DNA of 64,000 bases from Candidatus Levyibacteriota bacterium (GCA_003152105.1 PLZJ01000002.1:108257-172256), one strand, 5' to 3'; counted from the first letter of the stretch, positions 24,487 through 43,834 are shown. The notes: generated by a model from the letters alone, not told the origin. A program made the numbers and translations.

Positions 24487-24849
24487 GGGGATGAATCGAT
24501 TCGACGAGAATAGTACTTTGAAAAACAGCAAGCCGACTTTGATATATAGTCGTTAAACAGGATCAAAACATAAATGCTGAAGGATTATCCTTTAGTCGTT
24601 ATAATGCTCAGCCAGCAATGGCCTTTGCATAAAGCGTATCTATAACTCCCTTTCTTTGCGGGACATATAGATATTTACAAAGCTAAGATATAGTAAAAAA
24701 TCTGGTTTCGTTTTTTACCGAATTTTGAAACCTTACTATTATTTTTCCTGTCAATTGGATCAAGATATTAGGAAGTTTAATAATTGACTACGCTTGTAGA
24801 CGTTTTTAACTGACTTTTTCGGACTCCGGTTCACTGCCGGACATCTCCA
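24487..24849 (+). ncRNA. ssrA: tmRNA (ssrA), tag reading frame ending ...NAQPAMAFA-UAA
   Basis: 5' GGGGAUGAAUCGAUUCGACG resembles the E. coli tmRNA 5' end. 3' T-arm CCGGUUCACUGCCGG followed by CAUCUCC-A pairs with the 5' GGGGAUG to form a 7-bp acceptor stem. Sits immediately downstream of smpB; ~363 nt. Confidence 0.75.
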
Positions 24850-24930
24850 CAAACAACGTTTAGATTGCTAAATCAATCTAAACTAATACATTATCAGATA
24901 ATTAATACCTTCATATTTAATCCTGTAGTA

Positions 24931-26321: not shown

Positions 26322-26409
26322 GGAGGAGTCGCATAGCCTGGTCCATTGCGAGGGTTTGCTAAACCCTTGAGCCGTAAGGCTCGCGCAGGTTCAAATCCTG
26401 TCTCCTCCG
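26322..26409 (+). tRNA. tRNA-Ser (anticodon GCU), class II with long variable arm
   Basis: Acceptor GGAGGAG/CTCCTCC; anticodon stem-loop AGGGT TTGCTAA ACCCT; variable arm TGAGCCGTAAGGCTCGC; T-arm GCAGG TTCAAAT CCTGT. Confidence 0.8.
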
Positions 26410-26424
26410 CAATAAAGTTCTATT

Positions 26425-26511
26425 GGAGAGGTCGCATAGTGGCCTAGTGCGGCGGTCTTGAAAACCGCTGTGGGTGCAAGCTCACCGTGGGTTCGAATCC
26501 CACCCTCTCCG
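26425..26511 (+). tRNA. tRNA-Ser (anticodon UGA)
   Basis: Acceptor GGAGAGG/CCTCTCC; anticodon stem-loop GCGGT CTTGAAA ACCGC; long variable arm; T-arm GTGGG TTCGAAT CCCAC. Confidence 0.8.
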
Positions 26512-26583
26512 CACCATTATTCACTTCCTGCATAGGCTTTTTAGCTTGACTAAGTTTTCTAATTCATTTACAGTTATTAGTAT

Positions 26584-27144
26584 ATGGAGAATAATGAAAA
26601 TCCCCAACCAGAGCATGAATCAGAACGAAGCTACACTCATGAACATTCCCATGTGCCCACAGTCAAAACGTTGATAGCATGGCACGCACCCGGAAGACCT
26701 TTTGCGAAACGCTCCAAGGAGTATTTTATTACGAGTGCCTTGATTGCATTACTTATTGAAGTAATATGTTTATTATTTGGACAATATATGTTAATGCTTT
26801 TAATAGCTTCATTTTTGTTTGTTGTATTTGTTCTTGCAACTATTCCTCCTCATAATTTTCATTACAGAATAAGCTCAGAAGGAGTCACCGTGGAAGATCA
26901 TTTTTTTCTTTGGCAGGAACTTTATGATTTTTATTTTAAAGAGATTCACGGTACAGACGTCTTGCTTATACGAACCATTGCATTAATTCCTGGAGAACTA
27001 ACCTTAACCCTTGGCGAAGTTCATAAAGAACACATTAAAACGATTTTGCTGCCATACTTACCTTTTCGAGAATATGTTCAACCCACTTTTGTTGAAAAAT
27101 TTGGAAACTTTATTGCAAAAAACTTTCCTCTCGAGAGATCCTAA
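26584..27144 (+). CDS. hypothetical membrane protein (possible bPH-like C-terminal domain)
   Basis: Acidic N-terminus, two TM helices, C-terminal soluble domain. Confidence 0.45.
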   Translation: MENNENPQPEHESERSYTHEHSHVPTVKTLIAWHAPGRPFAKRSKEYFITSALIALLIEVICLLFGQYMLMLLIASFLFVVFVLATIPPHNFHYRISSEGVTVEDHFFLWQELYDFYFKEIHGTDVLLIRTIALIPGELTLTLGEVHKEHIKTILLPYLPFREYVQPTFVEKFGNFIAKNFPLERS

Positions 27145-27189
27145 TAGATTGATTATTCTGCAACTATAAGATACAATAAAATCGTTCTT

Positions 27190-27262
27190 GTGCCCGTAGT
27201 TCAATGGATAGAACACCTGGTTGCGGTCCAGGCGGTTGGAGGTTCGATTCCTCTCGGGCACG
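27190..27262 (+). tRNA. tRNA-Arg (anticodon GCG)
   Basis: GTGCCCG-TA-GTTC AATGGATA GAAC-A-CCTGG TTGCGGT CCAGG-CGGTT-GGAGG TTCGATT CCTCT-CGGGCAC-G. Confidence 0.65.
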
Positions 27263-27384
27263 CATATAAAATATAATCCCAAAGCAAACTCCTCTAAATT
27301 CATATAGACGATCAATACTTGCATTCAAATAGATAAATACGAAATAATAGGAACGCCTAGAAATATACAGAAAGGAGGTAAAAT

Positions 27385-29353: not shown

Positions 29354-29373
29354 GTGCTATAATTACCTAGCTT

Positions 29374-29460
29374 GGAGGGGTCGCATAGTGGACTAGTGCA
29401 GCGGTTTCGAAAACCGCCATAAGGGAAACCTTATCGTGGGTTCAAATCCCACCCCCTCCG
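29374..29460 (+). tRNA. tRNA-Ser (anticodon CGA)
   Basis: Acceptor GGAGGGG/CCCCTCC; anticodon stem-loop GCGGT TTCGAAA ACCGC; long variable arm; T-arm GTGGG TTCAAAT CCCAC. Confidence 0.8.
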
Positions 29461-31164
29461 CAAAGTGAGATTTTCTTGATAGAGATACATCATTTGTGCT
29501 GTTATATCAACCTTTTCCTCAGGTTTGAACCGAGCAACAATTCTATCCGTCTCAATCTTTGCTTCCCGAATGGCAATAAATGGTTTTGGCACGGCAAGAC
29601 TGAGTATTTTGTCTTTTAATATAAGGTTTGAGCCAATGGTTGCAAGAATTTCTTTTTTTTCGTGATGTGATCCATGCTTAAACTTGAGACGTGCATAGCA
29701 CGCAAAGTTGAATGTTCTTTGTGATAGTTCTAACCATTCATCTGCTCGTTTGGCTAATGTTTTCTGCTCCTGTTCTAGATTTATCTTTTCTTTTTGGAGT
29801 GGTGTAATCTGCTTCTTAAAGTCTTCATCAGACAATACTGAACCATCAGAGTTCATAGGAGAAATTTTTAGCTTGATAAGGTTATTGATTCGCTCAAGAC
29901 AATCTCGATATTTTGTATTGATACTTTCAGCAATTGCGTCTTGTTCTCTTGCTTCTTGGTCGTGTAGATAGTTAAGGTGGCTAATTGCCCAATCCTTAAA
30001 TGCTTCTGGAATCTCAATTCTGGAAAGCAAGAAGTCAATCTGTTCCTCTAATGCCTCAAGGCGAACATATTTTTGCTTACACTTTATTGTTTTATTTTTC
30101 TTTGTACAGCGATAGAAAATGTAGTGAAGTATTGATGGATTAGCCATGTTCGCAATGGAAGTATTGCATTGGGTACAATTATTAGTGTTTTTTGATGAAA
30201 ACTTATTTTTACACTTCGTACAAATAACTTGCCATAATTCCTCTGCTGTTACTCTTGAGTCACATTCGCCACACCGAACCATTCCAGTAAACGAAAACTC
30301 CCTAGCTTTAGCTCGTTGTTTGCCTTTCCTACCTAAAATAATCTGCACTTTGTCATATTCTGCTTGTTCAATCATTTTGTCATGTTTTCCTTCATACCAA
30401 TTACCGCTACCTATTGGATACTCATACCAACCATAATAAAAGGAGTTCGTGAAGATTCTATACAAACCAGCACGAGACATCTCTGCACCACCTAATTTTT
30501 TTCGTTTTACTGTTGTATATTCCCATTCTTCATTCATAATTTTGAGTATTTGAGGAACAGTATAGTTTCCAGTAAGCAGTAAATCCCATGCTTTACGAAC
30601 TAATGAAAAACGGACAGAGTCAGTGATGATTTTTCTGTTACCTTTTTCTTCTGATTTATCATTCAAGTAGCCTTCTGGAGCAATACCTGGTCTCCAACCT
30701 TTTGTGAGCTTTGTGTTAAGTCCACGTTTTACATTTTTTGATAAGTCTCGTAGGAATTGGTTTGCTTGACCAAACTCAATGTTCAGGAGTAACACATTGT
30801 CTTGAGACTGATAAATCCTATGAGGGGTAACGATTACTTTTAATTTCTCTTTTTGCAAAAACCAGCTTAATGTTCCTGAATCTACAGGATTACGAGAGCA
30901 TCGTGATAAATCCCATACAACCAATCCTTGAATAATGCCATCTTCAACACGTTGCAGTTCTTCATTAAAGATTGGTCTACCTGGTTGTTTCGCTGACATT
31001 GATTCTTCTACAATCCGCTCAACCTTGAGTTTATTATCTTTGACCAGCTTTAATAACACTTCTTTTTGCGACTCAAGAGACGCAACTTGATGGTCAGCAT
31101 CATCGCTACTTCGCCTGATATAAACATCATATTTTAATTGTAATAATTCTGATGGAATATACAT
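29431..31164 (-). CDS. large serine recombinase (phage-integrase/TnpX-like)
   Basis: N-terminal resolvase catalytic motif YIRRSSDDADHQVASLESQKE, then recombinase domain, Cys-rich zinc ribbon (CGECDS...CTKC...CTQC) and coiled coil. The last ~10 codons (GWDLNPR*) are encoded inside the 3' end of tRNA-Ser(CGA). The track's upstream M (31326) overlaps the neighbouring gene, so ATG at 31164 is preferred. Confidence 0.85.
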   Translation of the reverse strand: MYIPSELLQLKYDVYIRRSSDDADHQVASLESQKEVLLKLVKDNKLKVERIVEESMSAKQPGRPIFNEELQRVEDGIIQGLVVWDLSRCSRNPVDSGTLSWFLQKEKLKVIVTPHRIYQSQDNVLLLNIEFGQANQFLRDLSKNVKRGLNTKLTKGWRPGIAPEGYLNDKSEEKGNRKIITDSVRFSLVRKAWDLLLTGNYTVPQILKIMNEEWEYTTVKRKKLGGAEMSRAGLYRIFTNSFYYGWYEYPIGSGNWYEGKHDKMIEQAEYDKVQIILGRKGKQRAKAREFSFTGMVRCGECDSRVTAEELWQVICTKCKNKFSSKNTNNCTQCNTSIANMANPSILHYIFYRCTKKNKTIKCKQKYVRLEALEEQIDFLLSRIEIPEAFKDWAISHLNYLHDQEAREQDAIAESINTKYRDCLERINNLIKLKISPMNSDGSVLSDEDFKKQITPLQKEKINLEQEQKTLAKRADEWLELSQRTFNFACYARLKFKHGSHHEKKEILATIGSNLILKDKILSLAVPKPFIAIREAKIETDRIVARFKPEEKVDITAQMMYLYQENLTLRRGWDLNPR

Positions 31165-31168
31165 ATTT

Positions 31169-31999
31169 TTATATTCTACTATTAAATCCACTGTCACGTT
31201 CAGCGTAAAATATAAGCTGATTATACGTTGTTTCAATCCATTTTTCATCTGCCTTTTCAGGTTTTTGTAAAAGCAGTGATTCTTGTTCTGCAAAGCGAAA
31301 CGATTTAGAACGATTGAACAACTCATATGTTTGAATTACGTTTATGATGCAAGTATTTTGCTTTACGATTACTTGATTTATAAACTCATCAATCTCTGTT
31401 AATAATCCTTTACGAGCTACAATTTGCATGCCATCAAATATCTTTAACTCAACCTTTTTTATGAGTGCCTGGTAATTTTGTAATTTCTGGATGAGTTCTC
31501 GTACTTCTGCAAGCGTATCAAAATAAGCAGCTTTTAATGAATCATTACAAAATAGCAGTGTACGATTATTACCTTCTAAATTATCTGATGAAAACGTGAG
31601 TATTTGTAACATTTCTAGAATGCGTGAATTTAAGTCATTTTCATCCTCATCAGTTTCAGATAGCACTAGATTCAGGACTCTTTGCCCTTGTAACAGTAAT
31701 GGACTAATTTTTATAAAGTATTGTAAATGAGACAAACATGCTTCCTGAACCTGCAAGTGCAAATAAGTTGTTTGATAATCAAGAATAATTTGTTGCACGT
31801 TCATATACATACGCCAGTAGAAACTGTATTCACTGATATTAGGCTGAGGAATAGCATCCACAATTGCTTGTATCTCATTCTCATAATCGCCTTCCCCTTC
31901 GTCCTGTTTCATTAAATACCCAATAACAACTTTTGCAGCTTCTTTTGACGTAAGCCCCTGAACAAGAGATGATAATTTTCTGATATTAAAATTTGTCAT
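31169..31999 (-). CDS. hypothetical protein (element-borne)
   Basis: 276-aa ORF with its stop 4 nt from the integrase start. Confidence 0.45.
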   Translation of the reverse strand: MTNFNIRKLSSLVQGLTSKEAAKVVIGYLMKQDEGEGDYENEIQAIVDAIPQPNISEYSFYWRMYMNVQQIILDYQTTYLHLQVQEACLSHLQYFIKISPLLLQGQRVLNLVLSETDEDENDLNSRILEMLQILTFSSDNLEGNNRTLLFCNDSLKAAYFDTLAEVRELIQKLQNYQALIKKVELKIFDGMQIVARKGLLTEIDEFINQVIVKQNTCIINVIQTYELFNRSKSFRFAEQESLLLQKPEKADEKWIETTYNQLIFYAERDSGFNSRI

Positions 32000-32001
32000 A
32001 G

Positions 32002-32430
32002 TTATTTCCTCACTTTCCTTTCTAAAATAACTCTGTCAATTGCTTCAATCTTTTTATCAATTTCAGAAACTTCAAATGCTTTTATGGCAATACCAAGTAA
32101 ATAACCAACCGTATTTGCGAGCTTTGGTGGCAATTTACCAGAGCGTAATTCATTGATTGTTTGTACGACTGCTATTACCACATCAGATGTATTTTTTATT
32201 TCAAATGGCTCAAGGTTAAGGTTTAGGGTTTTATACCCATCAGATGAACCACCTTTAGCAACAGCATTTTGCTTTGTCTCTTTCATTGATTCCTCATGGT
32301 TAATGCAATACTGTGAGCTTTGTACAGCATATGCACCGCACCTATCACCATTTTGTTTTATAAATTCACATTGTTTACTCATAGTTTTAAGTAAGCTACT
32401 TACTGGGTAGGGGTAGCTATAGCCCTTCAT
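32002..32430 (-). CDS. hypothetical protein with N-terminal Cys/His cluster (CEFIKQNGDRCGAYAVQSSQYCINH)
   Basis: 142-aa ORF packed in the element operon. Confidence 0.4.
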   Translation of the reverse strand: MKGYSYPYPVSSLLKTMSKQCEFIKQNGDRCGAYAVQSSQYCINHEESMKETKQNAVAKGGSSDGYKTLNLNLEPFEIKNTSDVVIAVVQTINELRSGKLPPKLANTVGYLLGIAIKAFEVSEIDKKIEAIDRVILERKVRK

Positions 32431-33961
32431 TTTCTGCTATTTCTGCATAGTTTTGTTCAGCAGGTGTTAAATCAGATATAAGCTCTGGTTGTGACACCTG
32501 TGACAGTAATGACACTGTTTCACCTACACCATTACTGTTATTAGCAGCTTGTAATTCTTGATGATTATTTGTGGGTATATCTGTTTCACTGTCACTACTG
32601 TCATTACTGACGGTGATACCATATTGTGTTATCAGCTTCTTAACCAATTCAGGATCATAATAAATGCCTCGTTGTCCTGCTGTTCTTTTTTTGATAAATC
32701 CTAAACTTCTTAAAATCTTGCCTACTGTTTCATTTTGTAATGTGAACTTTGCATCTTTACCTTTGTTAAATTCATTAGCGACAAGTTCAATTGGTAGGTA
32801 TGCACCAACAACATCATTTTCAAGTTTAATAACAGTTTCTAAAATTCGTGCTTCTAAAGAATCAGTTGCATCTTCTTTTTTCTGCATCGCTATATTGTTA
32901 AGCATCTTCATGAATGTATCTTTCTTGTTTGGGAAAAACGTAAAAATGATTTGAAATAAAGGACTGGTAATGTCACCAAGCCTTGCTTGTGCTGGCTTTT
33001 CAACAGTCATAATTTCTCTTTTATAATGTGCTGCTCGAAATGCAGTCAGTCTGTTCTTTAGTTCTAGTGCGCTCTCTGGCAGCACAGGATTACTAAAGAG
33101 CTTACTTGATGGCTTCATGTCTATAGATATACTTCTTGACTCTAAAATGTCATCTACAGGGCGATTGGTGGCAATAATGGTTGCTCCAAATAACTGATAG
33201 ACTTTGGTGTCTCTGAAAGCACCTTTTTCAGGCCACAAGGTACGAGACGAAGCTGAACCTTTTTCAAAACGAGCAAGAATTAAATCATCGCAATTTGCTC
33301 GTTCCATTTTTCTAGGAAAGTCTTTTATATCAAATCCAAGCGCTGCTTTATGGTCATTGCCCCATCTGATAATATCTGCTTCCCTGACACATTCAGTAAA
33401 CACACCTCGTCTTGCAACATACATTGCGCCTTTTGTGGTTCTGCTTTTGCCACGTTCTTTTACTGCATAGAGGTATAAGATCGGTGAGAAATGGAGCTTA
33501 TCCAGAAAGTAAGTATGGAAATCCCACATAACTAATAAATGATAAAAATGCTCATTTGGTAAATCAGATATTTCAGTGTGGTAGGTGAATAAATCAGTGT
33601 AAATGTTTTCGTCTTCCTCACAATCAATATCATCATGCCTTTCAATATGTCTCATTACCTCATCAGCGTTAGCAAATAAGTAAGGGCAGGCTTCTCGTGG
33701 TGGTGGAGTAAACATTTTATCCAAATACTCAATCTTATCCACTGTTTCATGATTTTCTGTTAAATATACAAGACGTTTACCAGTATCTAAAACATCAATA
33801 ACGCCTGGTAAGTCAAGCGCATAGTATATCTTTTTACTTTTTTCGTCTTTTTGTTTATCCTTATCCATATGTTTCTTATCGTCAGTAGTTTTGTTTGAGA
33901 CATCAAATCCAAATTCTTCTTTTAATAATTCCTCAACTGGTCTTGCATAGTTATTGTTCAT
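32417..33961 (-). CDS. hypothetical 514-aa protein, possibly replication/primase-associated (weak)
   Basis: Largest gene of the element module, with an acidic/Lys-rich N-terminus. No Walker A seen; assignment is by position only. Confidence 0.35.
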   Translation of the reverse strand: MNNNYARPVEELLKEEFGFDVSNKTTDDKKHMDKDKQKDEKSKKIYYALDLPGVIDVLDTGKRLVYLTENHETVDKIEYLDKMFTPPPREACPYLFANADEVMRHIERHDDIDCEEDENIYTDLFTYHTEISDLPNEHFYHLLVMWDFHTYFLDKLHFSPILYLYAVKERGKSRTTKGAMYVARRGVFTECVREADIIRWGNDHKAALGFDIKDFPRKMERANCDDLILARFEKGSASSRTLWPEKGAFRDTKVYQLFGATIIATNRPVDDILESRSISIDMKPSSKLFSNPVLPESALELKNRLTAFRAAHYKREIMTVEKPAQARLGDITSPLFQIIFTFFPNKKDTFMKMLNNIAMQKKEDATDSLEARILETVIKLENDVVGAYLPIELVANEFNKGKDAKFTLQNETVGKILRSLGFIKKRTAGQRGIYYDPELVKKLITQYGITVSNDSSDSETDIPTNNHQELQAANNSNGVGETVSLLSQVSQPELISDLTPAEQNYAEIAENEGL

Positions 33962-34151
33962 ATTGATTAAAAAGTTGTTCTTTTAATTCGTAATATGCTT
34001 TTTCCTTACTCTCATAAATCGTGTAATACAATTTTTGTTTCTTTTTGTCTTGTTCTTGAAAAAAGGCGATATGCCAATCAACCATATCGTTAAATGGTTT
34101 TTCAAGTTTTCCTAAAATTTCCATTACTTCACCTATGCTTAACTGTTTCAT
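33951..34151 (-). CDS. small hypothetical protein (66 aa)
   Basis: Overlapping start and stop with neighbours. Confidence 0.3.
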   Translation of the reverse strand: MKQLSIGEVMEILGKLEKPFNDMVDWHIAFFQEQDKKKQKLYYTIYESKEKAYYELKEQLFNQYEQ

Positions 34152-34366
34152 ACTCTTTTATGTTTTATACGTTTCTTATTTTGCTTCTTTTGTGGTACTA
34201 ACCAGCTTTTTGGAATCGGCTTATAAATAAGACCGAATAATCGCAAGAGTTTTGTTCCTTGTTCTCGTGCGTCATCATAAGAAATATCATGCCCAAATTC
34301 TTTTTTGTATATCTCCTGATACTCAAGGATTGCTTCTCGTGGTAATAAAGCGTTATCTGTTTTCAT
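34148..34366 (-). CDS. small basic hypothetical protein (72 aa)
   Basis: 4-nt overlap with the downstream gene; basic C-terminus KKQNKKRIKHKRV. Confidence 0.3.
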   Translation of the reverse strand: MKTDNALLPREAILEYQEIYKKEFGHDISYDDAREQGTKLLRLFGLIYKPIPKSWLVPQKKQNKKRIKHKRV

Positions 34367-34616
34367 ACAGCCTCGCTTTCACCTGACGTAACTGGGTAAA
34401 ATACATTTGAGGCTCAACCTTGAGTTCTCGTTTCCAGTAGGCTTCTACTAGTTGCTCAAGTTCATTACTTCTTTTGAAAAAGAAAACAGATTTTTGTGAG
34501 TTTGGAAGTTTTTCTACTCCTTCAAGTGGAAAATATAATGAGAGAGTGGTAGCAAGAGCTAAATCCTGCGTCTGATATAAAGTTGTAACTGATTTATATT
34601 CGTGTGTCATAGTCAT
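34353..34616 (-). CDS. small hypothetical protein (87 aa)
   Basis: 14-nt overlap with the downstream gene. Confidence 0.3.
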   Translation of the reverse strand: MTMTHEYKSVTTLYQTQDLALATTLSLYFPLEGVEKLPNSQKSVFFFKRSNELEQLVEAYWKRELKVEPQMYFTQLRQVKARLYENR

Positions 34617-34726
34617 TGCCGCTTTTGTGTGGCAATAACTAATGGCGAAAAATCACCGTGACAAAATAACCGATAAAAAAGAGCTTCAAAAAGCCTTTTC
34701 AAGGTTACTTTTATTTTACGGTGACG

Positions 34727-35920
34727 TCACTGACTATCTTTTTCATAGACTTCTTGTGATTGTTCTTTTATGTATTCTTCTATTCCAAGTTTATCATTTT
34801 CGGTATTCAATTCATTCTGTGAAGATTGTCCTGACTCTGGGATAAGATGAATCTTAATTTTATATGCTCTTTCTTTCTTATAATCGTAAAAGGGGTCTTC
34901 TGGTATTTGAAAATAAGCCTTTAGGGCTTCTGCCAACCGCTGCTTCTTCTTTTTGAAACTGTCTACCTCTCTTTTAGGCAATCCCAGTTTAGAGGTCATT
35001 TCCCACGATAACTCACCATCATGAAATGCAAGCAAGCGTAAAAAATCCCATTGCTTGTTTGGCAGTTTATTTTTACTGTTCTTAAATCCCATTTCTTCGT
35101 AATTCGTGTGACGTGTCTGGTCTTTTGCTTTTATAATCGCTTCATGTCCGTCAAGAAATTTGATAGTGATATTTTCCCAAGTAACATTGTCTGGAAACAC
35201 CTTTTTAACTGCCACCCTAGAGGTACTATCTGTTTCAAGTTCCTTATTGGGCGTCTGCACCAATTGTTTTAATTCGTTTAACCTTTCGACAACGTTTTGA
35301 GCAGAAACAGAAGGACTAAAAACGATACGAACATCACTTTTGGATTCGTTAAAATATGGTGTAAATCCGATATTCTTTCCAAGCAACACAAAGACTTTCT
35401 CTACGTCATCAACGCTAACGCCATTAGTAACAAAATCTGCTTTCGGAAATTTTAGCTCCTCTATATTGTTGGTCTGATTAGAAGTTACCCCTACCAGATG
35501 ATACTTTTGGATTAGTATTGTAATCACTTGAGAAATTTTTGATTTTAGGCTTTTGTCAAAATGCTCAAGACTAGAAGCATAATCTTTCATGTTTCTTTTT
35601 AAGACCTCATTCTCAATCGCTGTAAATAATTCATCAAATTGTGGTTGTAGTATTGTTATTGCGTACTCATCCATGCCAATAGCTACGACTTGTCCAAACT
35701 GAGGAATAAGACTCATTCTTATAGTACCTTTACGCTGTAGTTCGGACAGTATTTCTTCCTGCTGCTTAAATGTTGGTATGGCAGGTTCACTATGAAGAAT
35801 ATAAATTGGAAAAGTTACGCTTTTACTTTGTAGGTTCTTTTTAAGAAGTATTCGTTTAATTTCTTGTAGAACCCACCATACATTTTGAGCATGGTTTGAA
35901 TCAACTTGTGTCATATTCAT
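34727..35920 (-). CDS. hypothetical protein (397 aa), first gene of the element's minus-strand run
   Basis: Long ORF; start faces the divergent promoter region 35921-36013. Confidence 0.45.
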   Translation of the reverse strand: MNMTQVDSNHAQNVWWVLQEIKRILLKKNLQSKSVTFPIYILHSEPAIPTFKQQEEILSELQRKGTIRMSLIPQFGQVVAIGMDEYAITILQPQFDELFTAIENEVLKRNMKDYASSLEHFDKSLKSKISQVITILIQKYHLVGVTSNQTNNIEELKFPKADFVTNGVSVDDVEKVFVLLGKNIGFTPYFNESKSDVRIVFSPSVSAQNVVERLNELKQLVQTPNKELETDSTSRVAVKKVFPDNVTWENITIKFLDGHEAIIKAKDQTRHTNYEEMGFKNSKNKLPNKQWDFLRLLAFHDGELSWEMTSKLGLPKREVDSFKKKKQRLAEALKAYFQIPEDPFYDYKKERAYKIKIHLIPESGQSSQNELNTENDKLGIEEYIKEQSQEVYEKDSQ

Positions 35921-36013
35921 TTTACGCTAGTTCCAATCCGAATGTTACCAAAATTATACTCAAAATTGAAGAAGCATAACCATGTCAAAGTCTTCTTTGA
36001 TATAATGCAAACA

Positions 36014-36733
36014 ATGGCAGACCATCCACTAACCACTCTTTTTATGATTTCTTCCCTCGATGGAAAAATTTCTACTGGCGATATTGATAATTTAGATGTT
36101 GATAAGGATTTTCCTCGTATTGCAGGTATCAAAGAAGGCTTGCATCAGTATTACGATTTGGAAAAGACCACAGATAGGGTGTCTTTTAACTCAGGAAAAG
36201 TACAAGCAAAAGTGGGCGTAAATCAAAGAACATGGGATAAAGGACGAGATGATGTCAGTTTTGTTGTTGTAGATAATAAACCCCATTTGGATAAAAACGG
36301 AGCAGAATACTTTGCCAAAAGGTCAGACCATTTCTATCTTATTACTTCCAACAAAAACCATCCTGCATTTGCACTACAAGAACAATATCCAACCATGCAC
36401 ATACTCTTTTATGAGAAAAAAATTGATTTTGTAGATGTATTTCGTAGATTCAAAGAAGAATTTAGCATTGAAAGAATAACTATCCAAACAGGTGGTACAC
36501 TCAATGCTGAATTTTTACGTCTTGGGCTTATTGACAGAGTTTCTATCGTTGTTGCACCTTGTCTTATAGGTGGTAAGGATACGCAATCACTCATTGGTGG
36601 CGAATCATTACATACAGAAGAAGATTTGAAGAAAATAAAAGCATTAGAAATTATTAGGTGTGATGTATTAAAAAATTCCTATCTTCATGTGCAATATAAA
36701 GTAATCAATGATACAAAAGTTGAAAATCAGTAA
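36014..36733 (+). CDS. RibD C-terminal/dihydrofolate-reductase-like reductase family protein
   Basis: LTTLFMISSLDGKIS N-terminal motif typical of the RibD_C fold. The track start at 35906 is TTG. ATG at 36014 lies 7 nt downstream of an extended -10 TGaTATAAT (35998-36006), so it may be leaderless; alternative ATG at 36005. Confidence 0.55.
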   Translation: MADHPLTTLFMISSLDGKISTGDIDNLDVDKDFPRIAGIKEGLHQYYDLEKTTDRVSFNSGKVQAKVGVNQRTWDKGRDDVSFVVVDNKPHLDKNGAEYFAKRSDHFYLITSNKNHPAFALQEQYPTMHILFYEKKIDFVDVFRRFKEEFSIERITIQTGGTLNAEFLRLGLIDRVSIVVAPCLIGGKDTQSLIGGESLHTEEDLKKIKALEIIRCDVLKNSYLHVQYKVINDTKVENQ

Positions 36734-36736
36734 ATT

Positions 36737-37480
36737 ATGAGATTCAAAAATAAGGTAATTATTGTTACGGGAGCTTCAACGGGCATTGGTCGTGCTACTG
36801 CAATAGCGTTTGGCAAAGAAGGAGCAACAGTTATTTTAGGAGCAAGGTCATTGAAAGGACTGATGGAAACCAAAAAGAAGGTAAATGAAGCTGGCGGTAA
36901 AACAGAGGTTATTACCGTTGATTTAACAGATGAAAAACGTCTTCATTCGTTTATCAAAGAAATTAAAGAAAACCATAAGCAGATAGACGCTTTGGTTAAT
37001 ATCGCAGGTATCTGGCATGGAAAAGATGAGGTATATGCAGGAAGAGATTACGAAACATTTGACCAGAAAGTAATTGTTGATACTTATATGGTTGGTACGA
37101 TTTCTCCTTCCCTTCTTGCTCATGCGTTTATTCCTCTTATGCCTAAAGGTTCTGCAATAATGAATCTATCAGGTACATTTGAATCAGGAGCAAAAGGATG
37201 GTTACCATACTACGTTTCCAAACGTGCTATTGAAGATTTAACAGTAGGACTGGCAGAAGAACTGAAAGATAAAGGGATACAAGTGAATGGTATTTCCCCA
37301 TCTGATACAGCAACAGACGCATACAAGCATTATTTTCCTCAATACATCAAGGATGCCATAGAACCAGAAGAAATTGCTAAATTTGTGGTGTACCTTTGTT
37401 CTGATGAAGCAAAGGACATTACAGGTAAAATATATGTACTAAAGAAAGGTAAAGAACCTTTTGAGGCATTTCATTTTTAA
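36737..37480 (+). CDS. short-chain dehydrogenase/reductase (SDR) family oxidoreductase
   Basis: TGASTGIGRATA Rossmann motif; active-site YxxxK (YYVSK). Confidence 0.85.
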   Translation: MRFKNKVIIVTGASTGIGRATAIAFGKEGATVILGARSLKGLMETKKKVNEAGGKTEVITVDLTDEKRLHSFIKEIKENHKQIDALVNIAGIWHGKDEVYAGRDYETFDQKVIVDTYMVGTISPSLLAHAFIPLMPKGSAIMNLSGTFESGAKGWLPYYVSKRAIEDLTVGLAEELKDKGIQVNGISPSDTATDAYKHYFPQYIKDAIEPEEIAKFVVYLCSDEAKDITGKIYVLKKGKEPFEAFHF

Positions 37481-37483
37481 CCT

Positions 37484-37894
37484 ATGGCTACACTTAAACC
37501 TTCCTTTAAAATCTATACTGCTACATCTCATATTTCAAAAGCAGGCAGAGGCGTTTTCGCAGCAGTTGATATAAAAAAAGGTCAAACCATAGAACAATGT
37601 CCAGTGTTTGTACTTCCGAGAAAAGATTACCCTACTCTTAAACAAACAACAATGCGTGATTACTATTTTATGTGGGGAAAAACGACAGTTGGCGTCTGCT
37701 TTGGATTTGGTTCGTTGTATAACCATTCTTACCAAGCAAATGCTACATACAAAAAGTTGATAAAAGAACAAATAATCGAATTTATAGCAATAAAAGATAT
37801 TAAGCAGGATGAAGAAATTACCGTGAACTATAATTATGGCAATCCAGATGACAAAAGTGCTTTATGGATTGAATCAATAAAACCTAACTCATGA
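37484..37894 (+). CDS. SET-domain protein (putative protein lysine methyltransferase)
   Basis: GRGVFA, NHSYQANA (NHSC-like) and EEITVNY (ELTxDY-like) motifs in a 136-aa protein. Confidence 0.65.
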   Translation: MATLKPSFKIYTATSHISKAGRGVFAAVDIKKGQTIEQCPVFVLPRKDYPTLKQTTMRDYYFMWGKTTVGVCFGFGSLYNHSYQANATYKKLIKEQIIEFIAIKDIKQDEEITVNYNYGNPDDKSALWIESIKPNS

Positions 37895-38457
37895 AAGATT
37901 TTAAGATAGTTTTTATTCATGGATATACAGCTTCGCATCTTGCAGACTGGTATCCGAACATTTCAAAAGAATTAGACGCTCTTGGTATAGATTATGCTAC
38001 TCCAGATTTACCAGGAGGGATTCATTCACATGCTCAAGAGTGGCTTGATGTACTGCATAAAGTAGTTTCTCAAACAGATAAACAATTAGTTCTGGTTGGT
38101 CATAGTCTTGGTACTCGTACTGCACTTCTTTACCTTGAAAAATACCAACCAAAAGTAGAAGAGGTTTTTCTTATTGCTGCATTTGCCAACAGAACAGAAA
38201 ATGCAGATAGACGTGATGGAGAAGCGTATCCTGATTTTTTTAGCCATAAAGTAGATTTGGGAAAGATAATACCACTCGTTGGTAAGTTTATTGTTATGCA
38301 CTCCAAAGATGATAGTTCTATTGATTACGAGCAAGGCGTTGAGATCTCAAAAGATTTAGGAGCAGAGCTTATTTTATACGAAGGCAAAGACCATTTTAGC
38401 GAACCTAACAATGCTCCAGTCATACTTGAAGAATTGAGAAAGGAGTTAAATTTTTGA
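37891..38457 (+). CDS. alpha/beta-hydrolase (YdeN/RBBP9-like serine hydrolase)
   Basis: FIHGY...GHSLG nucleophile elbow, ~190 aa. Confidence 0.65.
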   Translation: MKDFKIVFIHGYTASHLADWYPNISKELDALGIDYATPDLPGGIHSHAQEWLDVLHKVVSQTDKQLVLVGHSLGTRTALLYLEKYQPKVEEVFLIAAFANRTENADRRDGEAYPDFFSHKVDLGKIIPLVGKFIVMHSKDDSSIDYEQGVEISKDLGAELILYEGKDHFSEPNNAPVILEELRKELNF

Positions 38458-38458
38458 T

Positions 38459-38905
38459 ATGAAAAAGGGCATTGATTATATTGGTGTTGGTGTAGGAGCA
38501 GCTATTTTTGACAAAAATGGAAAGCTATTTATTACCAAACGTGGTAAAGAAGCGAAAAATGAAAGAGGTAAATGGGAAATTCCAGGTGGAAGCGTAGAGT
38601 TCGGAGAAACCTTTAAGCAAGCAATAAAGCGTGAGATTAAAGAAGAACTTGGTATAGAGATTGAAATTATAGAGCTACTTGGTATCTGTGACCATATTAT
38701 TCCTGACGAGCACCAGCATTGGGTATCACCTACCTATATTTGCAAAATCAAAAAAGGAACGCCAAAAATACTTGAGCCTCATAAATGTGCAGAAATCGGT
38801 TGGTTTACCATAGAAGAAGCAGAAAAACTTTCACTTTCCATCGTAACCAAGTACGATATATCTCAGTTAAAAAAGAAGTATCCAAAAGAATTACATAGCC
38901 TATGA
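38459..38905 (+). CDS. NUDIX hydrolase
   Basis: NUDIX box GGSVEFGETFKQAIKREIKEELGI. Confidence 0.8.
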   Translation: MKKGIDYIGVGVGAAIFDKNGKLFITKRGKEAKNERGKWEIPGGSVEFGETFKQAIKREIKEELGIEIEIIELLGICDHIIPDEHQHWVSPTYICKIKKGTPKILEPHKCAEIGWFTIEEAEKLSLSIVTKYDISQLKKKYPKELHSL

Positions 38906-39534
38906 ATGACCAAAAACAACACTGGAATCAACTGCATTCGCAAGGGGCAATTAAAGATTATGCTAAAAAGCAAACAGATTTTGCAGAAGAAGTTAGTAAA
39001 ACTTTTCCTGCATCGGCAGCGGTTCTTGAGTTAGGTTGTGGATTAGGTAATGATAGTTTTTTCTTTGCAAAAAAGGGACATGCTGTAATATCAACTGATT
39101 TTTCAGAAACAGTAATAGAACAAAATCAAAAACACTATCAAAAACAACAAAACTTGAGCTTTCAAGTTATTGATATGAGTAAGCTGCTTCCTTTTAATGA
39201 CGTTCAATTTGATGTCATCTATGCAAGACTTTCGCTTCACTATTTTACCGATACCATAACAAAACAATTATTTACTGAGATTCATAGAATACTCAAAAAT
39301 GGAGGATTACTCTGCTTTATCTGCAAATCTATTGATGATTCATTATATGGTCAGGGTGAACAAATTGAAAAAGATATGTTTCAATTCAATGGTCATATAC
39401 GACACTTTTTCAGCGAAGAGTACGCCAAAGAATGTTTAACTGATGAGTACAAGATTAAGGTATTAGAGACTGGTGAAGAAGATTTTTATGGTAAACAGTC
39501 TGCTTTTGTAAAGGTTGTTGCTCAAAAGATTTAA
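38902..39534 (+). CDS. class I SAM-dependent methyltransferase
   Basis: Motif I VLELGCGLGND; motif post-I VISTDFS. Confidence 0.8.
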   Translation: MNDQKQHWNQLHSQGAIKDYAKKQTDFAEEVSKTFPASAAVLELGCGLGNDSFFFAKKGHAVISTDFSETVIEQNQKHYQKQQNLSFQVIDMSKLLPFNDVQFDVIYARLSLHYFTDTITKQLFTEIHRILKNGGLLCFICKSIDDSLYGQGEQIEKDMFQFNGHIRHFFSEEYAKECLTDEYKIKVLETGEEDFYGKQSAFVKVVAQKI

Positions 39535-39537
39535 CGG

Positions 39538-40575
39538 ATGAAAAAATATGTTTTTAAGCCATATAACCCAATCTTCCCAATACTTTTTGAGAAAGAAAAA
39601 CTACGTTTACAAAAGTATTTAACTGGAAGCTATCAAATTGAGCATATTGGCAGTACGGCAATCCCAAAACTTGGTGGAAAAGGAATTATTGATATTTATA
39701 TCGCTGTACCAAAAGGTCAAATGAAGCAAACCTCTCAGGAGATACAACAAGCTGGTTATGAGTTTAGAATGCAAGCGAGTAAAATGCACCATCACTTATT
39801 CCACAGAATTTATCTACCAGATGACTTAGAAGGAATAAGAACGTATCATGTGCATATAACCTATCCTGAACAACAGGACTGGATAAATACTCTTGCGTTT
39901 CGGGATTACCTACGGACACATCCACAAGACGTAAAAGAATACGCTGAAATCAAAAAGAAAGCAGCCACAGAAGCAAACGAAGATAAAGATGCTTATATGA
40001 CAATAAAATCCCCTATGATGCAAGAGATTCTTCAAAAAGCTCTAGCATCATATGTGTCAAAATCATTAGTAAACCAGCTAACCAATCTAATATCACCTGA
40101 ACTTTGTATAAACAATAAAATGTATGAGGATTTTCTTGCCCTGATAAAAGAAGGTAAATTAACAAGAGAAGAAAATCCTGAGAACCATTGTTGTGTTTTC
40201 TTTATTCCCTATAACCCACAGACAAAACAGATTTTTATTGTTCATCATAAGAAAGCTAAGCAGTGGGTTGTACCAGGTGGACACATTGAAAAAGGAGAAA
40301 TACTGGAAGACGCTGTAAAGCGTGAAGCAAACGAGGAATTAGGAATAAAAATAGAAAAAGTAGTAAAACCATTCTTATTTTCCATTATGTATATCCATAA
40401 TGAAGGACAGCTTTGCAAAGCTCATCACGATATTTGGTATCTAATACCAACGAAAGATAAACTAAACATAGATTTTACCGAGTTTAATGACGTGAAATGG
40501 GCAACTATTTCAGAAGCAAGAAAGATAATTACGCATAAAACGTATTTACAGGCTATTGAAAGGATTGAAAAATAA
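39538..40575 (+). CDS. GrpB-family (nucleotidyltransferase-fold) protein fused to a C-terminal NUDIX domain
   Basis: N-terminal HIGSTAIPKLGGKGIIDI (GrpB/UPF0157 signature); C-terminal VPGGHIEKGEILEDAVKREANEELGI NUDIX box. Confidence 0.6.
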   Translation: MKKYVFKPYNPIFPILFEKEKLRLQKYLTGSYQIEHIGSTAIPKLGGKGIIDIYIAVPKGQMKQTSQEIQQAGYEFRMQASKMHHHLFHRIYLPDDLEGIRTYHVHITYPEQQDWINTLAFRDYLRTHPQDVKEYAEIKKKAATEANEDKDAYMTIKSPMMQEILQKALASYVSKSLVNQLTNLISPELCINNKMYEDFLALIKEGKLTREENPENHCCVFFIPYNPQTKQIFIVHHKKAKQWVVPGGHIEKGEILEDAVKREANEELGIKIEKVVKPFLFSIMYIHNEGQLCKAHHDIWYLIPTKDKLNIDFTEFNDVKWATISEARKIITHKTYLQAIERIEK

Positions 40576-40578
40576 CAA

Positions 40579-41299
40579 TATGCAAATTAAAGTTGTTTCT
40601 TGGAACATTTGGCAAGGGTATCACCTGAAAGAAGTAATCTCCTTCTTAACGAAGAGTAATGCTGATGTGATAGGTTTGCAGGAAGTCATAGAAAAAGATG
40701 GAACAAATATCGCTGCTGTTATTGCAAAGGAGCTTAGTTATGAATGTGCCTACCATAGAGCAATTGATAAGACACGACTAGGATTTCCACAAGGCAATGC
40801 AATTTTAAGTAAATATCCGATAGAAAAGAGTATACCTCACATGCTTAGTGATATGAGCTTCTACAAAGACACAGCAGAAACAGAGCCACGACTTGCAGTA
40901 GAAGCAAAAATTAACATAAAAGATAAATTACTTACTGTCTTTACAGTTCATCTTGCGTATTCTCACAAATTTCAAAATTCAGAAATGCGGAATTTGCAGG
41001 TAGACAATTTAATCAAACTACTTTCCGACACAAGAACAGTCCTTATTGGTGATTTCAATTCTCATCCAGACAGTTCATACATGGCAAAGTTAAGCGATGT
41101 TATGGTTAATACTGACAAGGATTTAACAACTCCAACGTGGACAATTTACCCATTTGACTACGAAGGATTTAAGGAGACTGAACTGAGGCATAGATTGGAT
41201 TATATTTTCGTCAGTAAGGATATAAAAGTAGATTCATTCAAAGTTGAAGACTCCAAAGGCTCAGACCACTTACCAATATCTTCAATAATAGAAATGTAA
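40579..41299 (+). CDS. endonuclease/exonuclease/phosphatase (EEP) family protein
   Basis: VVSWNIW...VIGLQEV N-terminal motif, with a C-terminal SDHLPI motif. The track start at 40556 is TTG. Confidence 0.8.
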
Positions 41300-41331
41300 T
41301 TCCTCATTAACGATACACAACTTTACCTCAA

Positions 41332-42588
41332 ATGATATACTTGTCTACGCACGATATGAAAATAAGTTATTCTTGGGAAGAAACAGAAACCCTATGGCAA
41401 TCCCGCTACGAAACTCTAGCGCAAGAAGCAGGTATTTCTTCTGATACATTAAGAGCTTCTAGGGCACAATTATTAGTTGCGTTTGGCGAAGTCTGGTTAA
41501 AACAAGAATATGAAAAATCCAAGAAAACTTCTAAACCACTCCACGAAATGTTAAAACCAAGTCTTGTTGGAATGCTTTCCAACCCAGTCATCAATAACGC
41601 AGTCCAAATTGTTGAGTTAGCAAAATACCTTACTGTCCTGAGAGACCAAGAGAAACTGAATGAAACATTAACAATGCTCAAAGCACAGTTTGAAGCAGCA
41701 AGATTAAATATAGCGGTGGCATACAGGCTTCATAAAGTTGGATTTGAAGAATTGTCCATAGAGCCAGACTCTCCCAGAGGTAAAGGCGATGTAAAAGGCA
41801 AGTTTCTTAACGTGCCATTTTTCTTTGAATGTTCCATTATTGAGGAAAAGAATTTAGAGTTCTTGTTTCAGAGCCTTCTTGAAGAAAGGCTATCAAAAGG
41901 AATGAAAGATCAAGCATTACAAGTTGGCTTTGAGGTAGAATTCGTTAAAGCAGTTGATGCGACTGGCATTAACGAGACAGTTGAAGCAGTCAAACAAGCA
42001 AGACATATCTTTGGCAAACAGGAGAAACTTTTCGATACTCCTTTCAAATCCTCTGTAGCAAGAGGGAAAGTTTTCCGCTTACAAGAAGAGCATAAAAAGT
42101 CACCTCCCGATATGGAGAAATGGGATGCTGTCTTTTCATTAAGCTATGAAACTCCTGTGGAAACGAGAAACATTTACACAATTGACCTTGACGTTCCACA
42201 TAATGCTACTGGACGACTGTTTATAAAAGGGCTTCATTCTGCTCAACAACAAAAATCCATGTATGAACGAATGAAAGCGAAGTTGGAAGAAAAAATAGTA
42301 CAGACGCACAATGTGCCAGACAAAAAAATCTTTGTAATAATGACGGAAAAAAGAATAGAGGGTTTTAGCTGGAAAGACATATGGAAAAGCATGGAGTCAA
42401 ACCTAAAAACTAGACCAAACATCGCTGGCGTGTTCTTTGTAGATAGGCGACAAACAGAACTGGATGGTAAAATGAGATTTGCATATCCGCTTGCATTTTT
42501 CGTTAACATCTATGGCGACATGCCTGAATTACATCCATTGTTCGAGAATCTGAAAAAACTAGAGAGGAGTGATTGGTTAGCAGCATGA
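41332..42588 (+). CDS. hypothetical protein (418 aa)
   Basis: Long ORF with no recognised family; 16-nt overlap with the downstream gene. Confidence 0.45.
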   Translation: MIYLSTHDMKISYSWEETETLWQSRYETLAQEAGISSDTLRASRAQLLVAFGEVWLKQEYEKSKKTSKPLHEMLKPSLVGMLSNPVINNAVQIVELAKYLTVLRDQEKLNETLTMLKAQFEAARLNIAVAYRLHKVGFEELSIEPDSPRGKGDVKGKFLNVPFFFECSIIEEKNLEFLFQSLLEERLSKGMKDQALQVGFEVEFVKAVDATGINETVEAVKQARHIFGKQEKLFDTPFKSSVARGKVFRLQEEHKKSPPDMEKWDAVFSLSYETPVETRNIYTIDLDVPHNATGRLFIKGLHSAQQQKSMYERMKAKLEEKIVQTHNVPDKKIFVIMTEKRIEGFSWKDIWKSMESNLKTRPNIAGVFFVDRRQTELDGKMRFAYPLAFFVNIYGDMPELHPLFENLKKLERSDWLAA

Positions 42589-43124
42589 TAGAAGACAAAG
42601 GAAAAAGATTGGCGAGGTTTCAAAATGGTTCACCGATAGAAATTATAGAAACACTTCTCAATTCTATTGCAAACTTTTATAATGGGGAAATTGACCAAGC
42701 TGCAAGTTCTCAACTCTGGCTATTGGTGATATTAGGTATCCATTCAGTAGCTTTAACTATTTCAGAAGGCATTTTTGACAAAAAAGGGTTAACTGGATTT
42801 ACTTTCTTTTTAGAAAACTTTATGGATGAAGACAAGGAAGGTTTTAAGTTTTCAGAGATAGCAAAACAAATACACAATTACAGAAATGTTGTTGCCCACC
42901 ATTGGTTATCTGCTTCTGGATATGATTTTGGCATAGACGGAGGTATGACAAAAGGATGGGAAGAAAGAGAGAATGTTATTTACTTCAATCCAAAGGTATA
43001 TTACGAGACTTTCAAAAACGCATTTGGTGGTGGCGGAAAAATTTGGGACTACAGACAGTTGCTTTCTCCCGAAGAATTGGAAACAGTAAAGGCAAGGTTA
43101 TTAAAGAAATACGAAACCCGATAA
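42573..43124 (+). CDS. hypothetical protein with Rx4HH motif (possible HEPN-like)
   Basis: IHNYRNVVAHHW fits the HEPN Rx4-6H signature; 183 aa. Confidence 0.35.
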   Translation: MVSSMIEDKGKRLARFQNGSPIEIIETLLNSIANFYNGEIDQAASSQLWLLVILGIHSVALTISEGIFDKKGLTGFTFFLENFMDEDKEGFKFSEIAKQIHNYRNVVAHHWLSASGYDFGIDGGMTKGWEERENVIYFNPKVYYETFKNAFGGGGKIWDYRQLLSPEELETVKARLLKKYETR

Positions 43125-43286
43125 AACTGTTGGCGTATTATATATTAAGCATAATTTGGGATATAATACTGTTGGGAAGCTGGTAATTGTGCGTAAAAAG
43201 CTCGAACATCGTCTACGAGCTTCCGCTATATCATTTAAAAATTTGTTTAAAAGAAAATAATTTCAATTTTAAAACTTAATAATCGT

Positions 43287-43712
43287 ATGAAACAACTTAT
43301 AAGTGCAGGTGGCGTAGTATTTACTAAAAAAGATGGCAATTTATGCATATTGATTGCACAACATGCTTCTCATCATGGATGGGTATTCCCAAAAGGTTTA
43401 GTTGGAGATCATATCGCATCAGAAAGTAAAGAACATACAGCTATTCGAGAGGTACAAGAAGAAACAGGCATTACTGGAAAAATTCTCCATACTCTTACTC
43501 CAATTTCTTATTCATACACTGATAAGGAAGATCATATAAATAAAACTGTTTATTATTATGTTATGCAATTTGTAAGCGGAGATATACGTAATCACGATGC
43601 TGAAATGGAAAATGTTGAATGGATTAATAGCTCTAAAGTTTTGGAGAAATTGACATTCAAATCAGACAAAAAAGTTTGGCTTGAAGCTGCTAAAATTATT
43701 AACCAAGCGTAA
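43287..43712 (+). CDS. NUDIX hydrolase
   Basis: NUDIX box PKGLVGDHIASESKEHTAIREVQEETGI. Confidence 0.8.
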   Translation: MKQLISAGGVVFTKKDGNLCILIAQHASHHGWVFPKGLVGDHIASESKEHTAIREVQEETGITGKILHTLTPISYSYTDKEDHINKTVYYYVMQFVSGDIRNHDAEMENVEWINSSKVLEKLTFKSDKKVWLEAAKIINQA

Positions 43713-43715
43713 TTG

Positions 43716-43802
43716 CGGAGAGGGCGGGATTTGAACCCGCGATACCTTTACAGGTATACAGCTTTTCCAAAGCTGCGCACTAGGCCACTATGCGACCCCT
43801 CC
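43716..43802 (-). tRNA. tRNA-Ser (anticodon GGA)
   Basis: Reverse complement: acceptor GGAGGGG/CCCTCTCC region; anticodon stem-loop CAGCT TTGGAAA AGCTG; long variable arm; T-arm GCGGG TTCAAAT CCCGC. Confidence 0.8.
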
Positions 43803-43834
43803 AGTGTTTCTCATTATATAAATCGTAAGTTCTT

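Follow-up and report, generated by a model that had tools for sequence, protein, structure and literature searches.

How does the gene of a large serine recombinase (LSR) come to end inside a tRNA gene? The question is raised by a stretch of 64,000 nucleotides from Candidatus Levyibacteriota bacterium (GCA_003152105.1 PLZJ01000002.1:108257-172256), called the window below, in which the host gene for tRNA-Ser(CGA) occupies positions 29374-29461 on the plus strand (ARAGORN) and a minus-strand open reading frame (ORF), 29431-31326, terminates as ...LTLRRGWDLNPR (...NLTLRRGWDLNPR in a longer extract) with its TAA at 29431-29433, overlapping the final 31 nt of the tRNA. The answer considered highly probable here is that an integrative, self-replicating, non-phage element of about 13.77 kb was inserted by its own LSR at the very 3' tip of tRNA-Ser(CGA), and that the LSR gene, having lost its own 3' end on integration, now runs for its last 31 nt through host tRNA sequence in antisense. 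At the level of sequence this answer is firmly supported by the relations between the two ends of the element, the in-frame rebuilding of the gene, a circular relative and its integrated twin, a 5-bp offset between the two recombination sites and conservation at the level of codons.

The probable start of the LSR is the methionine at 31161 (MYIPSELLQ...YIRRSSDD), which gives an integrated, tail-swapped form of 576 aa (29431-31161, minus strand); an alternative start, GTG at 31197 (588 aa), is found in public gene calls. The protein, which is also identified by its homologs, has the Resolvase, Recombinase and Zn_ribbon_recom domains by Pfam and matches the PHROG 95 integrase with an E value of 6e-51. 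The PF00239 match (E 1e-16) covers residues 68-210 of the 631-aa ORF, the catalytic-serine motif is present as YIRRSSDD, aligned to the invariant S18 of the family, PF07508 and PF13408 are over their cut-offs, and the four invariant cysteines are kept. In an AlphaFold2 (AF2) model of a relative, P0011, long helices at 372-419 and 431-482 form a predicted coiled coil. In sequence and in site the enzyme is thus of the large serine integrase type, and recombination of the att sites would be its work; no recognisable directionality factor was found in the element. Past the Arg codon that lies in the core, the gene ends in eight codons and a stop that are the host tRNA in antisense (RGWDLNPR), and this overlap is not a matter of chance, because such an overlap is also found in 37 of the 76 related loci of other genomes in which the end of the LSR ORF could be read.

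If the gene lost its 3' end, the missing part should lie elsewhere. A hidden Markov model (HMM) of the conserved tail of the family was run against six-frame translations of all related loci and of the window, and the split-off 3' end was found on the minus strand at 43145-43225, where RKLVDDVRAFYAQLPASQQYYIPNYA is followed by TAA and forms the P arm of attR. The remnant is identical at 19 of 26 positions to the tail of the intact LSR of a circular relative (L003) and stops at the same codon, while the second-best match in the window reaches 9 of 26 and 20 shuffled windows reach 8-10. A regular expression for tail peptides did not find it because the window reads VRA, not VRT; another candidate, EYYVPTFA at 57332-57349, was judged a chance match.

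The two ends of the element can then be compared directly. On the recombinase strand attL reads ...AATCTCACTTT-GCGGA-GGGGGTGGGATTTGAACCC... and attR reads ...AAATGATATA-GCGGA-AGCTCGTAGACGATGTTCGAGC..., and the only sequence common to both is GCGGA, the complement of tRNA positions 74-70; on the tRNA strand the same TCCGC core lies at 29457-29461 in attL and at 43222-43226 in attR. When the left part of attL and the right part of attR are joined, the reading frame continues to ...YQENLTLRKLVDDVRAFYAQLPASQQYYIPNYA and a stop, giving a 593-aa enzyme with the conserved tail of the family. When the other two halves are joined, an intact tRNA-Ser(CGA) is obtained, followed by TATATCATTTAAAAATTTG... 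(the B' arm, 43227-43286 on the plus strand, reconstructed from attL and attR as the host DNA formerly 3' of the tRNA), by a host NUDIX gene (43287-43712, beyond the B' arm) and by tRNA-Ser(GGA) (43715-43802, minus strand). The rebuilt junction of the circle, attP, is AATCTCACTTTGCGGAAGCTCGTAGACGATG, with TTTGCGGAAG around the crossover, and that of the empty site, attB, is CCCACCCCCTCCGCTATATCATTTAAAAAT. The junction positions at both ends place the element at about 29462-43221, 13,765 bp from core to core. The shared core has 4-7 bp in the relatives and 5 bp in the window, and the smallest block of identity over 12 attL/attR pairs is tRNA positions 71-74. Since this block is common to all pairs, the crossover dinucleotide must fall within it.

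A preliminary description of this DNA had rightly recognised the recombinase ORF ending within the tRNA 3' end, as borne out by ARAGORN and the ORF calls, the presence of an integrated element with a large serine recombinase, as borne out by the three Pfam domains and PHROG 95, and the tRNA junction as attL, as borne out by the TCCGC core in the attL/attR comparison. It had also proposed a 6.5-kb element (29374-35920) that brings its own copy of the tRNA 3' end and thereby rebuilds the tRNA, with an imperfect repeat of that end as attR at 35900-43720. The LSR ORF does cover the last 31 nt of the tRNA and the gene orientation does flip at 35.9 kb, as that model has it, but it is very improbable. 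With as many as 4 mismatches allowed, 13-28 nt of the tRNA's 3' end match nothing in the window except the other tRNA-Ser genes, and the search was also empty in the relative L001 and in 38 related loci, as is predicted by a short-core serine recombinase site. The junction is at tRNA positions 70-74, within the 5-bp core, so the overlap is host DNA; a free circular relative has no tRNA segment at that place; and attR is the LSR tail split off to 43.2 kb. The element therefore does not end at 35920 but runs on to about 43221, including a block of plus-strand enzyme genes, and is about twice the size first claimed.

A search for direct and inverted repeats over 29-45 kb gave only the similarity between two tRNA-Ser genes: tRNA-Ser(CGA) and tRNA-Ser(GGA), with 16 nt upstream of each, form a 106-nt inverted repeat (75%) at 29358-29463 and 43713-43818, and in the rebuilt empty site these two genes would be convergent with the single NUDIX gene in between. 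A T-loop-like 10-mer, GGTTTGAATC, lies at 35893-35902 in the first codons of a 397-aa gene (minus-strand peptide VDSNH); no tRNA-like stems surround it and it was taken as a chance occurrence. Upstream, at 26322-27263 on the plus strand, there is a cluster of tRNA-Ser(GCT), tRNA-Ser(TGA) and tRNA-Arg(GCG). The tRNA-Ser(TGA) shares with tRNA-Ser(CGA) the TCCGC tip and 26 of 28 nt of the 3' end, is unoccupied, and could, as judged by this similarity, serve as a secondary target.

Is the arrangement peculiar to this locus? The LSR family is very large and is found mainly in Patescibacteria. When C-terminus groups were counted among the 120 best homologs, 45 had tails in which the acceptor stem and T-arm of a tRNA are translated antisense (e.g., ...LRRGWDSNPR, ...PRVDSNHEP and ...QGRRESNPQ), 19 had a stop two to four codons past the junction, and 43 had the conserved tail NPxxLRGxD[EKD]VRT[WY]IMxNxxxFY[IV]PSF. 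Furthermore, 80 loci were taken from species-representative GTDB genomes, 76 of them with a readable LSR ORF end; in the 37 loci mentioned above the LSR 3' end overlaps a tRNA on the opposite strand by 10-130 nt, the tRNAs being Asn(GTT) in 20, Gln in five, Trp in four, Ser and Met in two each and, in single loci, Arg, Lys, His and Leu. On a 690-kb contig, tRNA-Asp(GTC) is occupied by an LSR with 80% identity to the window enzyme, and the same locus also has a second, distant LSR on tRNA-Gly(CCC). The same recombinase/tRNA-Asn fusion was seen at L056 8445-8518, on a contig labelled Pacearchaeota archaeon, which is either cross-domain spread or a binning error.

The free and the integrated forms can be compared in two relatives. 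The LSR P0011, 65% identical to the window enzyme and with the conserved tail ...NPTLLKTVDDVRTFYAQLSPSQQYYIPTFA and a stop, is encoded on L003, an 11,142-nt contig that is taken to be circular because its ends overlap by 30 nt; it has no tRNA and encodes a DnaG zinc-ribbon protein and an AAA_25 protein. The LSR of L180 is 82% identical to that of L003 and is fused to tRNA-Gln(CTG). By BLASTN, L003 8862-10590 aligns with L180 9880-11605 and the alignment stops at the tRNA, whereas the following part, L003 10573-10791, aligns with L180 838-1051, 10.7 kb upstream, where LKAVDDVRTFYAQLTTSQQYYIPVFA and a stop are encoded. As read from these alignments, this split is the product to be expected from attP x attB recombination with attP inside the recombinase gene. 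In addition, many loci gave matches in the HMM search to a tail remnant that lies upstream of the integrated LSR and has its orientation, and the remnant in the window is of the tail type of the closest relatives, L001 and L007; an attP within the gene is, on this comparison, common to many related elements.

Some relatives have further peculiarities. The LSR of L007 (9314-11440) is a decayed copy that has lost the catalytic domain (the match begins at residue 131), with one tail remnant about 600 nt upstream and a second at 1737-1808. L072 (312-2638) and L081 (120-2601), both from Gottesmanbacteria and at tRNA-Met, have three tail remnants each at a spacing of about 1.1-1.3 kb, which look like stacked scars of serial insertion and decay at one tRNA. 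L016, L021 and L032 have a third tail type past the junction, LLPL[VK][DN].F[RKC]N.E[IL]E.... Two contigs with intact tails, L178 and L179, are not circular, and an AF2 model of the intact recombinase, made for the docking of the tail, gives the tail a low pLDDT of 45-66.

By what means would such an enzyme recognise both a tRNA and a part of its own gene? The last ~22 nt of tRNA-Ser(CGA) are the B arm of attL and comprise the T-loop TTCAAAT (29441-29447), the T-stem, the acceptor 3' strand, G73 and C74. In the P arms of the family the V-R-T codons of the conserved tail lie over a DNA motif, GTT[AC]GAAC[CT] (also written GTTCGAAC), that resembles the antisense T-loop and stem ATTCGAACC and is called here the T-loop mimic; that of the window is GTTCGAGC at 43200-43207. 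Over 30 distinct P arms the codons are biased, with the Val codon GTT in 23/23 (background 38%), the Arg codon AGA or CGA in 26/27 (background 46%) and the Thr codon ACC or ACT in 27/29 (background 54%). These codons are less free than the protein requires, and therefore the DNA motif itself is conserved.

The positions of the two motifs are also related. When the tRNA tip was slid along the P arm in the 12 attL/attR pairs, anchored on the motif and over 16 offsets, the best offset was exactly +5 in 10 pairs, including the window, and a further pair tied at +5/+6. In the window, the T-loop motif starts 14 nt away from position 73 in the B arm, and the mimic 19 nt away from the corresponding point in the P arm. 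In the model of serine integrases derived from the structure of the Listeria LI integrase, the motif for the zinc-ribbon domain lies 5 bp farther inward in attB than in attP (PMC3783163), and the 5-bp shift of the T-loop mimic matches this published offset. By analogy, the zinc-ribbon domain would read the T-loop sequence in both sites. A dyad-related T-loop-like motif was also sought in the P' arm, but the only candidate, a codon-driven CAAAATC, was rejected for a position unfit for a common centre. The tail codons of the intact LSR of L033 read, in antisense, GGGTTCTAAC-TTCG-TCCCACCCTCGGAGCCA, that is, a T-arm, acceptor 3' strand and CCA with extra bases in the loop.

These results can be put together as the following mechanism. 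In the free circle, attP would lie inside the recombinase gene, 26 codons ahead of the stop, its P' arm formed by the codons ...YQENLTL and its P arm by the codons RKLVDDVR(T/A), followed by the conserved tail ...FYAQLPASQQYYIPNYA and the stop. The tRNA tip would be attB, with the acceptor 3' strand, T-stem and T-loop as the B arm and the DNA past the tRNA as the B' arm. Strand exchange within TCCGC (positions 70-74) would leave the tRNA whole except for the nucleotides beyond the crossover, would fuse the LSR ORF to the antisense tRNA (...LTLR-RGWDLNPR and a stop) and would move the gene's own final 25 codons to the opposite end of the element, with the catalytic and DNA-binding domains intact; excision would restore the 593-aa enzyme. 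If the outer motif is the T-loop, which is universal, it would be understandable that close relatives have moved between the tRNAs for Asn, Gln, Trp, Ser, Asp and other amino acids.

One step further, it is suggested tentatively, and with clearly less than even confidence, that the tail swap is a state sensor or directionality switch combined with the universal T-loop as outer recognition motif. The full-length enzyme with its D-x-V-R-T-W...F-Y-I-P-S-F tail, made only from the free circle, would integrate, and the tail-less integrated enzyme would differ in activity, stability or directionality. If this is true, directionality would be set by the recombination event itself, with no separate directionality factor, and T-loop recognition would give the family an inherent capacity to change from one tRNA gene to another as its target.

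Several points, however, weigh against the proposed origin of the element or parts of it. No empty site or excised circle of the window element was found, all public contigs with the flanking proteins being occupied; the rebuilt attB and attP junctions were unmatched in JGI metagenome contigs and IMG/VR, and the rebuilt 605-aa protein was absent from the protein collection. A route to the empty site through orthologs of a 499-aa flanking gene ended at a best match of 51% identity with synteny lost. The guanine + cytosine content is 0.355 both inside and outside the element and gives no boundary signal, with a local low-content gene to the left. The mimic of the window, GTTCGAGC, deviates once (V-R-A for V-R-T), no matching motif was found in the P' and B' arms, and the pairing of domain and motif draws on the Listeria LI analogy. 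Moreover, intact-tail LSRs occur on the large chromosomal contigs L014, L019 and L033 (2.18 Mb). Chromosomal members with an intact tail would fit the split gene only as tandem arrays or inside other elements. Such arrangements were shown for L058, where a tandem insertion that gives the older recombinase a new intact tail is visible, and for L032 and L057, where a second LSR adjoins tRNA-Asn 8 kb downstream, but not for L014, L019 and L033; the split-gene model thus accounts for chromosomal intact-tail members only with tandem or nested insertion. The second recombinase of L032 is of a distant kind. L014, L019 and L033 are from Aminicenantes and Latescibacterota, and L020, L024 and L026-L029 from Verrucomicrobia; all have intact D-x-V-R-T tails and no tRNA within 10 kb, and the tail of the Verrucomicrobia group is of a different, extended kind (...AAALIYAHFKKEF...).

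Does the window, then, hold a mobile element or a fixed relic, which arrived as proposed and lost excision, so that the truncated recombinase is a dead gene? The missing empty site and circle and the deviation in the mimic are what a relic would give, and decayed copies are common in relatives (the N-terminally truncated LSR of L007 and the remnant arrays of L072 and L081). The LSR ORF has nevertheless kept its full length, all three domains and the motif of the catalytic serine, the core is intact at either end of the element, and the 26-codon remnant is open to its ancestral stop. The codon changes in the remnant are four synonymous and three non-synonymous relative to L001 and ten and seven relative to L003, and this excess of synonymous changes suggests that the split-off tail is still selected as protein. 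A relic is regarded as a possible but rather unlikely state of this copy, and the element placed by its own LSR may still be mobile.

What does the element carry? Beyond the LSR, seven minus-strand ORFs extend up to 35920: proteins of 276 aa (31169-31999) and 142 aa (32002-32430) without family match, a 514-aa replication protein with a helicase-like AAA+/MCM-type module (32417-33961), two small ORFs of 66 and 72 aa without family match (33951-34366), an 87-aa DUF5659 protein (34353-34616, Pfam E 7e-10), which recurs in L001 and L180, and a 397-aa protein without family match (34727-35920). DUF5659 is the sole family among the Pfam, PHROG and NCBIfam matches other than those of the LSR, and scans of the unknown proteins by NCBIfam, PHROG and PADLOC gave nothing useful. 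The homologs of the 514-aa protein are frequently fused to DnaG-primase/Toprim, Prim-Pol or DUF3854 domains, and its AF2 model (pLDDT 83.5) has as top Foldseek matches in the PDB the C-terminal helicase region of the NrS-1 primase-polymerase, the SCCmec helicase Cch (5dgk), PriRep1, MCM and ASFV PrimPol; by homologs and model it is a replicative-helicase-like protein of the mobile-element type.

Between this module and attR lies a cargo block of ten plus-strand genes (36005-43124, Pfam), namely a RibD_C reductase-like protein, a short-chain dehydrogenase, a SET domain protein, an alpha/beta hydrolase, a NUDIX protein, a SAM methyltransferase, a GrpB-NUDIX protein, an endo/exonuclease-phosphatase and unknown proteins of 418 and 183 aa, so that 8 of the 10 match ordinary enzyme families. 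Matches of the NUDIX and methyltransferase genes to candidate defence models were discarded as generic domain matches only. NUDIX proteins, HAD phosphatases, Ham1/ITPase-like and guanylate-kinase-like enzymes recur in the cargo here and in L001 (3291-5339) and L180 (1174-3944), and elements of the L001/L180 type have cargo of NUDIX, HAD or Ham1-type.

The strand switch at 35.9 kb can also be read as the border between two tandem insertions, a recombinase and replication module at 29.46-35.92 kb and an older, recombinase-less cargo island at 35.92-43.22 kb that owns the tail remnant, and tandem arrays do occur in the relatives L032, L057, L058 and L081. However, the interval contains a single tail remnant and has neither another recombinase nor a hybrid site, and the remnant is of the type of L001 and L007. 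L001 and L180 are laid out like the window, their cargo, which is leading or on the opposite strand, being placed between the remnant and the genes for regulation and replication, and the circular L003 has about 5 kb of non-replication genes aboard. Two insertions are therefore improbable, and the cargo is better assigned to the one element placed by its own LSR.

The element could further be taken for a prophage with structural genes that have diverged past recognition, since PHROG 95 is a phage integrase family and many proteins of the element lack annotation. This is extremely unlikely: the element has only 13.8 kb, no capsid, terminase, portal or tail genes were found by PHROG or Pfam in the genes scanned, the integrase is the sole PHROG match among the recombinase-side genes scanned and the cargo is mostly of ordinary enzymes. 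The LSR family, moreover, is nearly absent from the 2.9 million viral contigs of IMG/VR (best match 47% identical, next at most 33%), and the replication protein is of the plasmid, SCCmec or primase-helicase type. The best description is thus a small self-replicating integrative element with cargo, not a phage.

Some other features were noted in the course of this work. A tmRNA gene with the tag peptide VKQDQNINAEGLSFSRYNAQPAMAFA lies at 24487-24850 on the plus strand, with SmpB just upstream in the source scaffold (L172 6149-6592). At about 51.3-53.7 kb (L164 18042-20426), in host DNA downstream of the element, there are genes with weak T4SS_pilin matches. At L178 6358-9853 a family member with an intact tail adjoins TIR-domain and caspase-like (Peptidase_C14) genes, and these neighbours suggest that some elements may have defence cargo.

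Serine integrases are the main tools for the insertion of large DNA into genomes, and how they choose site and direction is under active study. The sequence that the present family appears to recognise is found in almost all tRNA genes, and close relatives, which have switched among at least ten tRNA species, would be a natural series for the re-programming of target specificity. One 25-bp stretch doubles as protein code and DNA site, and an enzyme remodelled on integration is a possible new route to the control of directionality. The elements are common in bacteria of the candidate phyla radiation, whose mobile elements are poorly known, and bring cargo, often nucleotide-sanitising enzymes, into very small genomes. 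For annotation, recombinase calls with ends of the ...DSNP type would be artefacts that arise by fusion on integration, and the real length of the elements would be about twice the apparent one. In the one literature collection searched, no description of this LSR family, of a T-loop mimic or of a serine integrase gene that contains attP was found, nor anything on tRNA-targeting serine recombinases in these bacteria, an absence that is not proof of novelty.

How does the element compare with known systems? Classic tRNA-gene islands have a tyrosine integrase and a distal repeat of the tRNA 3' end of at least 15 nt, neither of which is present here. A self-replicating integrative element is indicated by the 514-aa helicase-like protein and by the circular form known from L003. 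In phage-type serine integrases attP is not known to lie within the gene of the integrase, and a protein-coding gene or a repeat usually contains attB, whereas here attP is in the coding sequence of the enzyme, attB is a tRNA tip and the C-terminus is changed by integration. The three-domain enzyme with a predicted long coiled coil is nevertheless like those of phiC31, Bxb1 and A118/Listeria LI, and the short att sites with a core of a few bp and no long repeats are also shared, as is, by sequence, an outer motif whose distance from the centre is 5 bp greater in attP than in attB (PMC3783163).

SCCmec is comparable as a non-phage island with large serine recombinases, an MCM-like Cch helicase, whose structure (5dgk) is matched by the 514-aa model of the window, and cargo. 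Its insertion point is the 3' end of rlmH, a conserved housekeeping gene. Its recombinases are a pair, CcrAB, its att sites lie outside the recombinase genes and its target is protein-coding, all unlike the window element. In the integration-dependent immunity of mycobacteriophages, reportedly described and experimentally tested by Broussard et al. in 2013, attP is said to lie in a coding gene and integration to change the C-terminus of a regulatory protein and hence its stability or activity; the split gene there is a repressor, with a tyrosine integrase. The attP in a coding gene is common to both systems, and the split gene is the recombinase here.

Tycheposons of Prochlorococcus are, like the window element, integrative elements of small size that are associated with tRNAs and have primase/helicase modules as well as cargo, but the great majority are of the tyrosine-recombinase type and flanked by partial tRNA copies; a large serine recombinase is present in 27 of 937 (10.1101/2020.12.28.424599), and the serine-recombinase passages of that account give no detail of the sites and describe no attP within the recombinase gene and no mimic of the T-loop. 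The nearest parallel in logic is given by the "suicidal" tyrosine integrases of the SSV type, in which the att site lies within the integrase gene, an arrangement said to be exclusive to archaea and discussed as a possible control of directionality by partition of the gene (PMC8371274). Partition of the integrase gene by the att site and tRNA targets are features of both. The SSV-type enzymes are unrelated tyrosine recombinases of archaeal viruses and plasmids and their gene is split into two large parts, whereas here a serine recombinase, with hosts mainly in the Patescibacteria, parts with its last 25 residues only; should the tail swap act as a state sensor, the present family would be a bacterial serine-recombinase counterpart of the archaeal enzymes.

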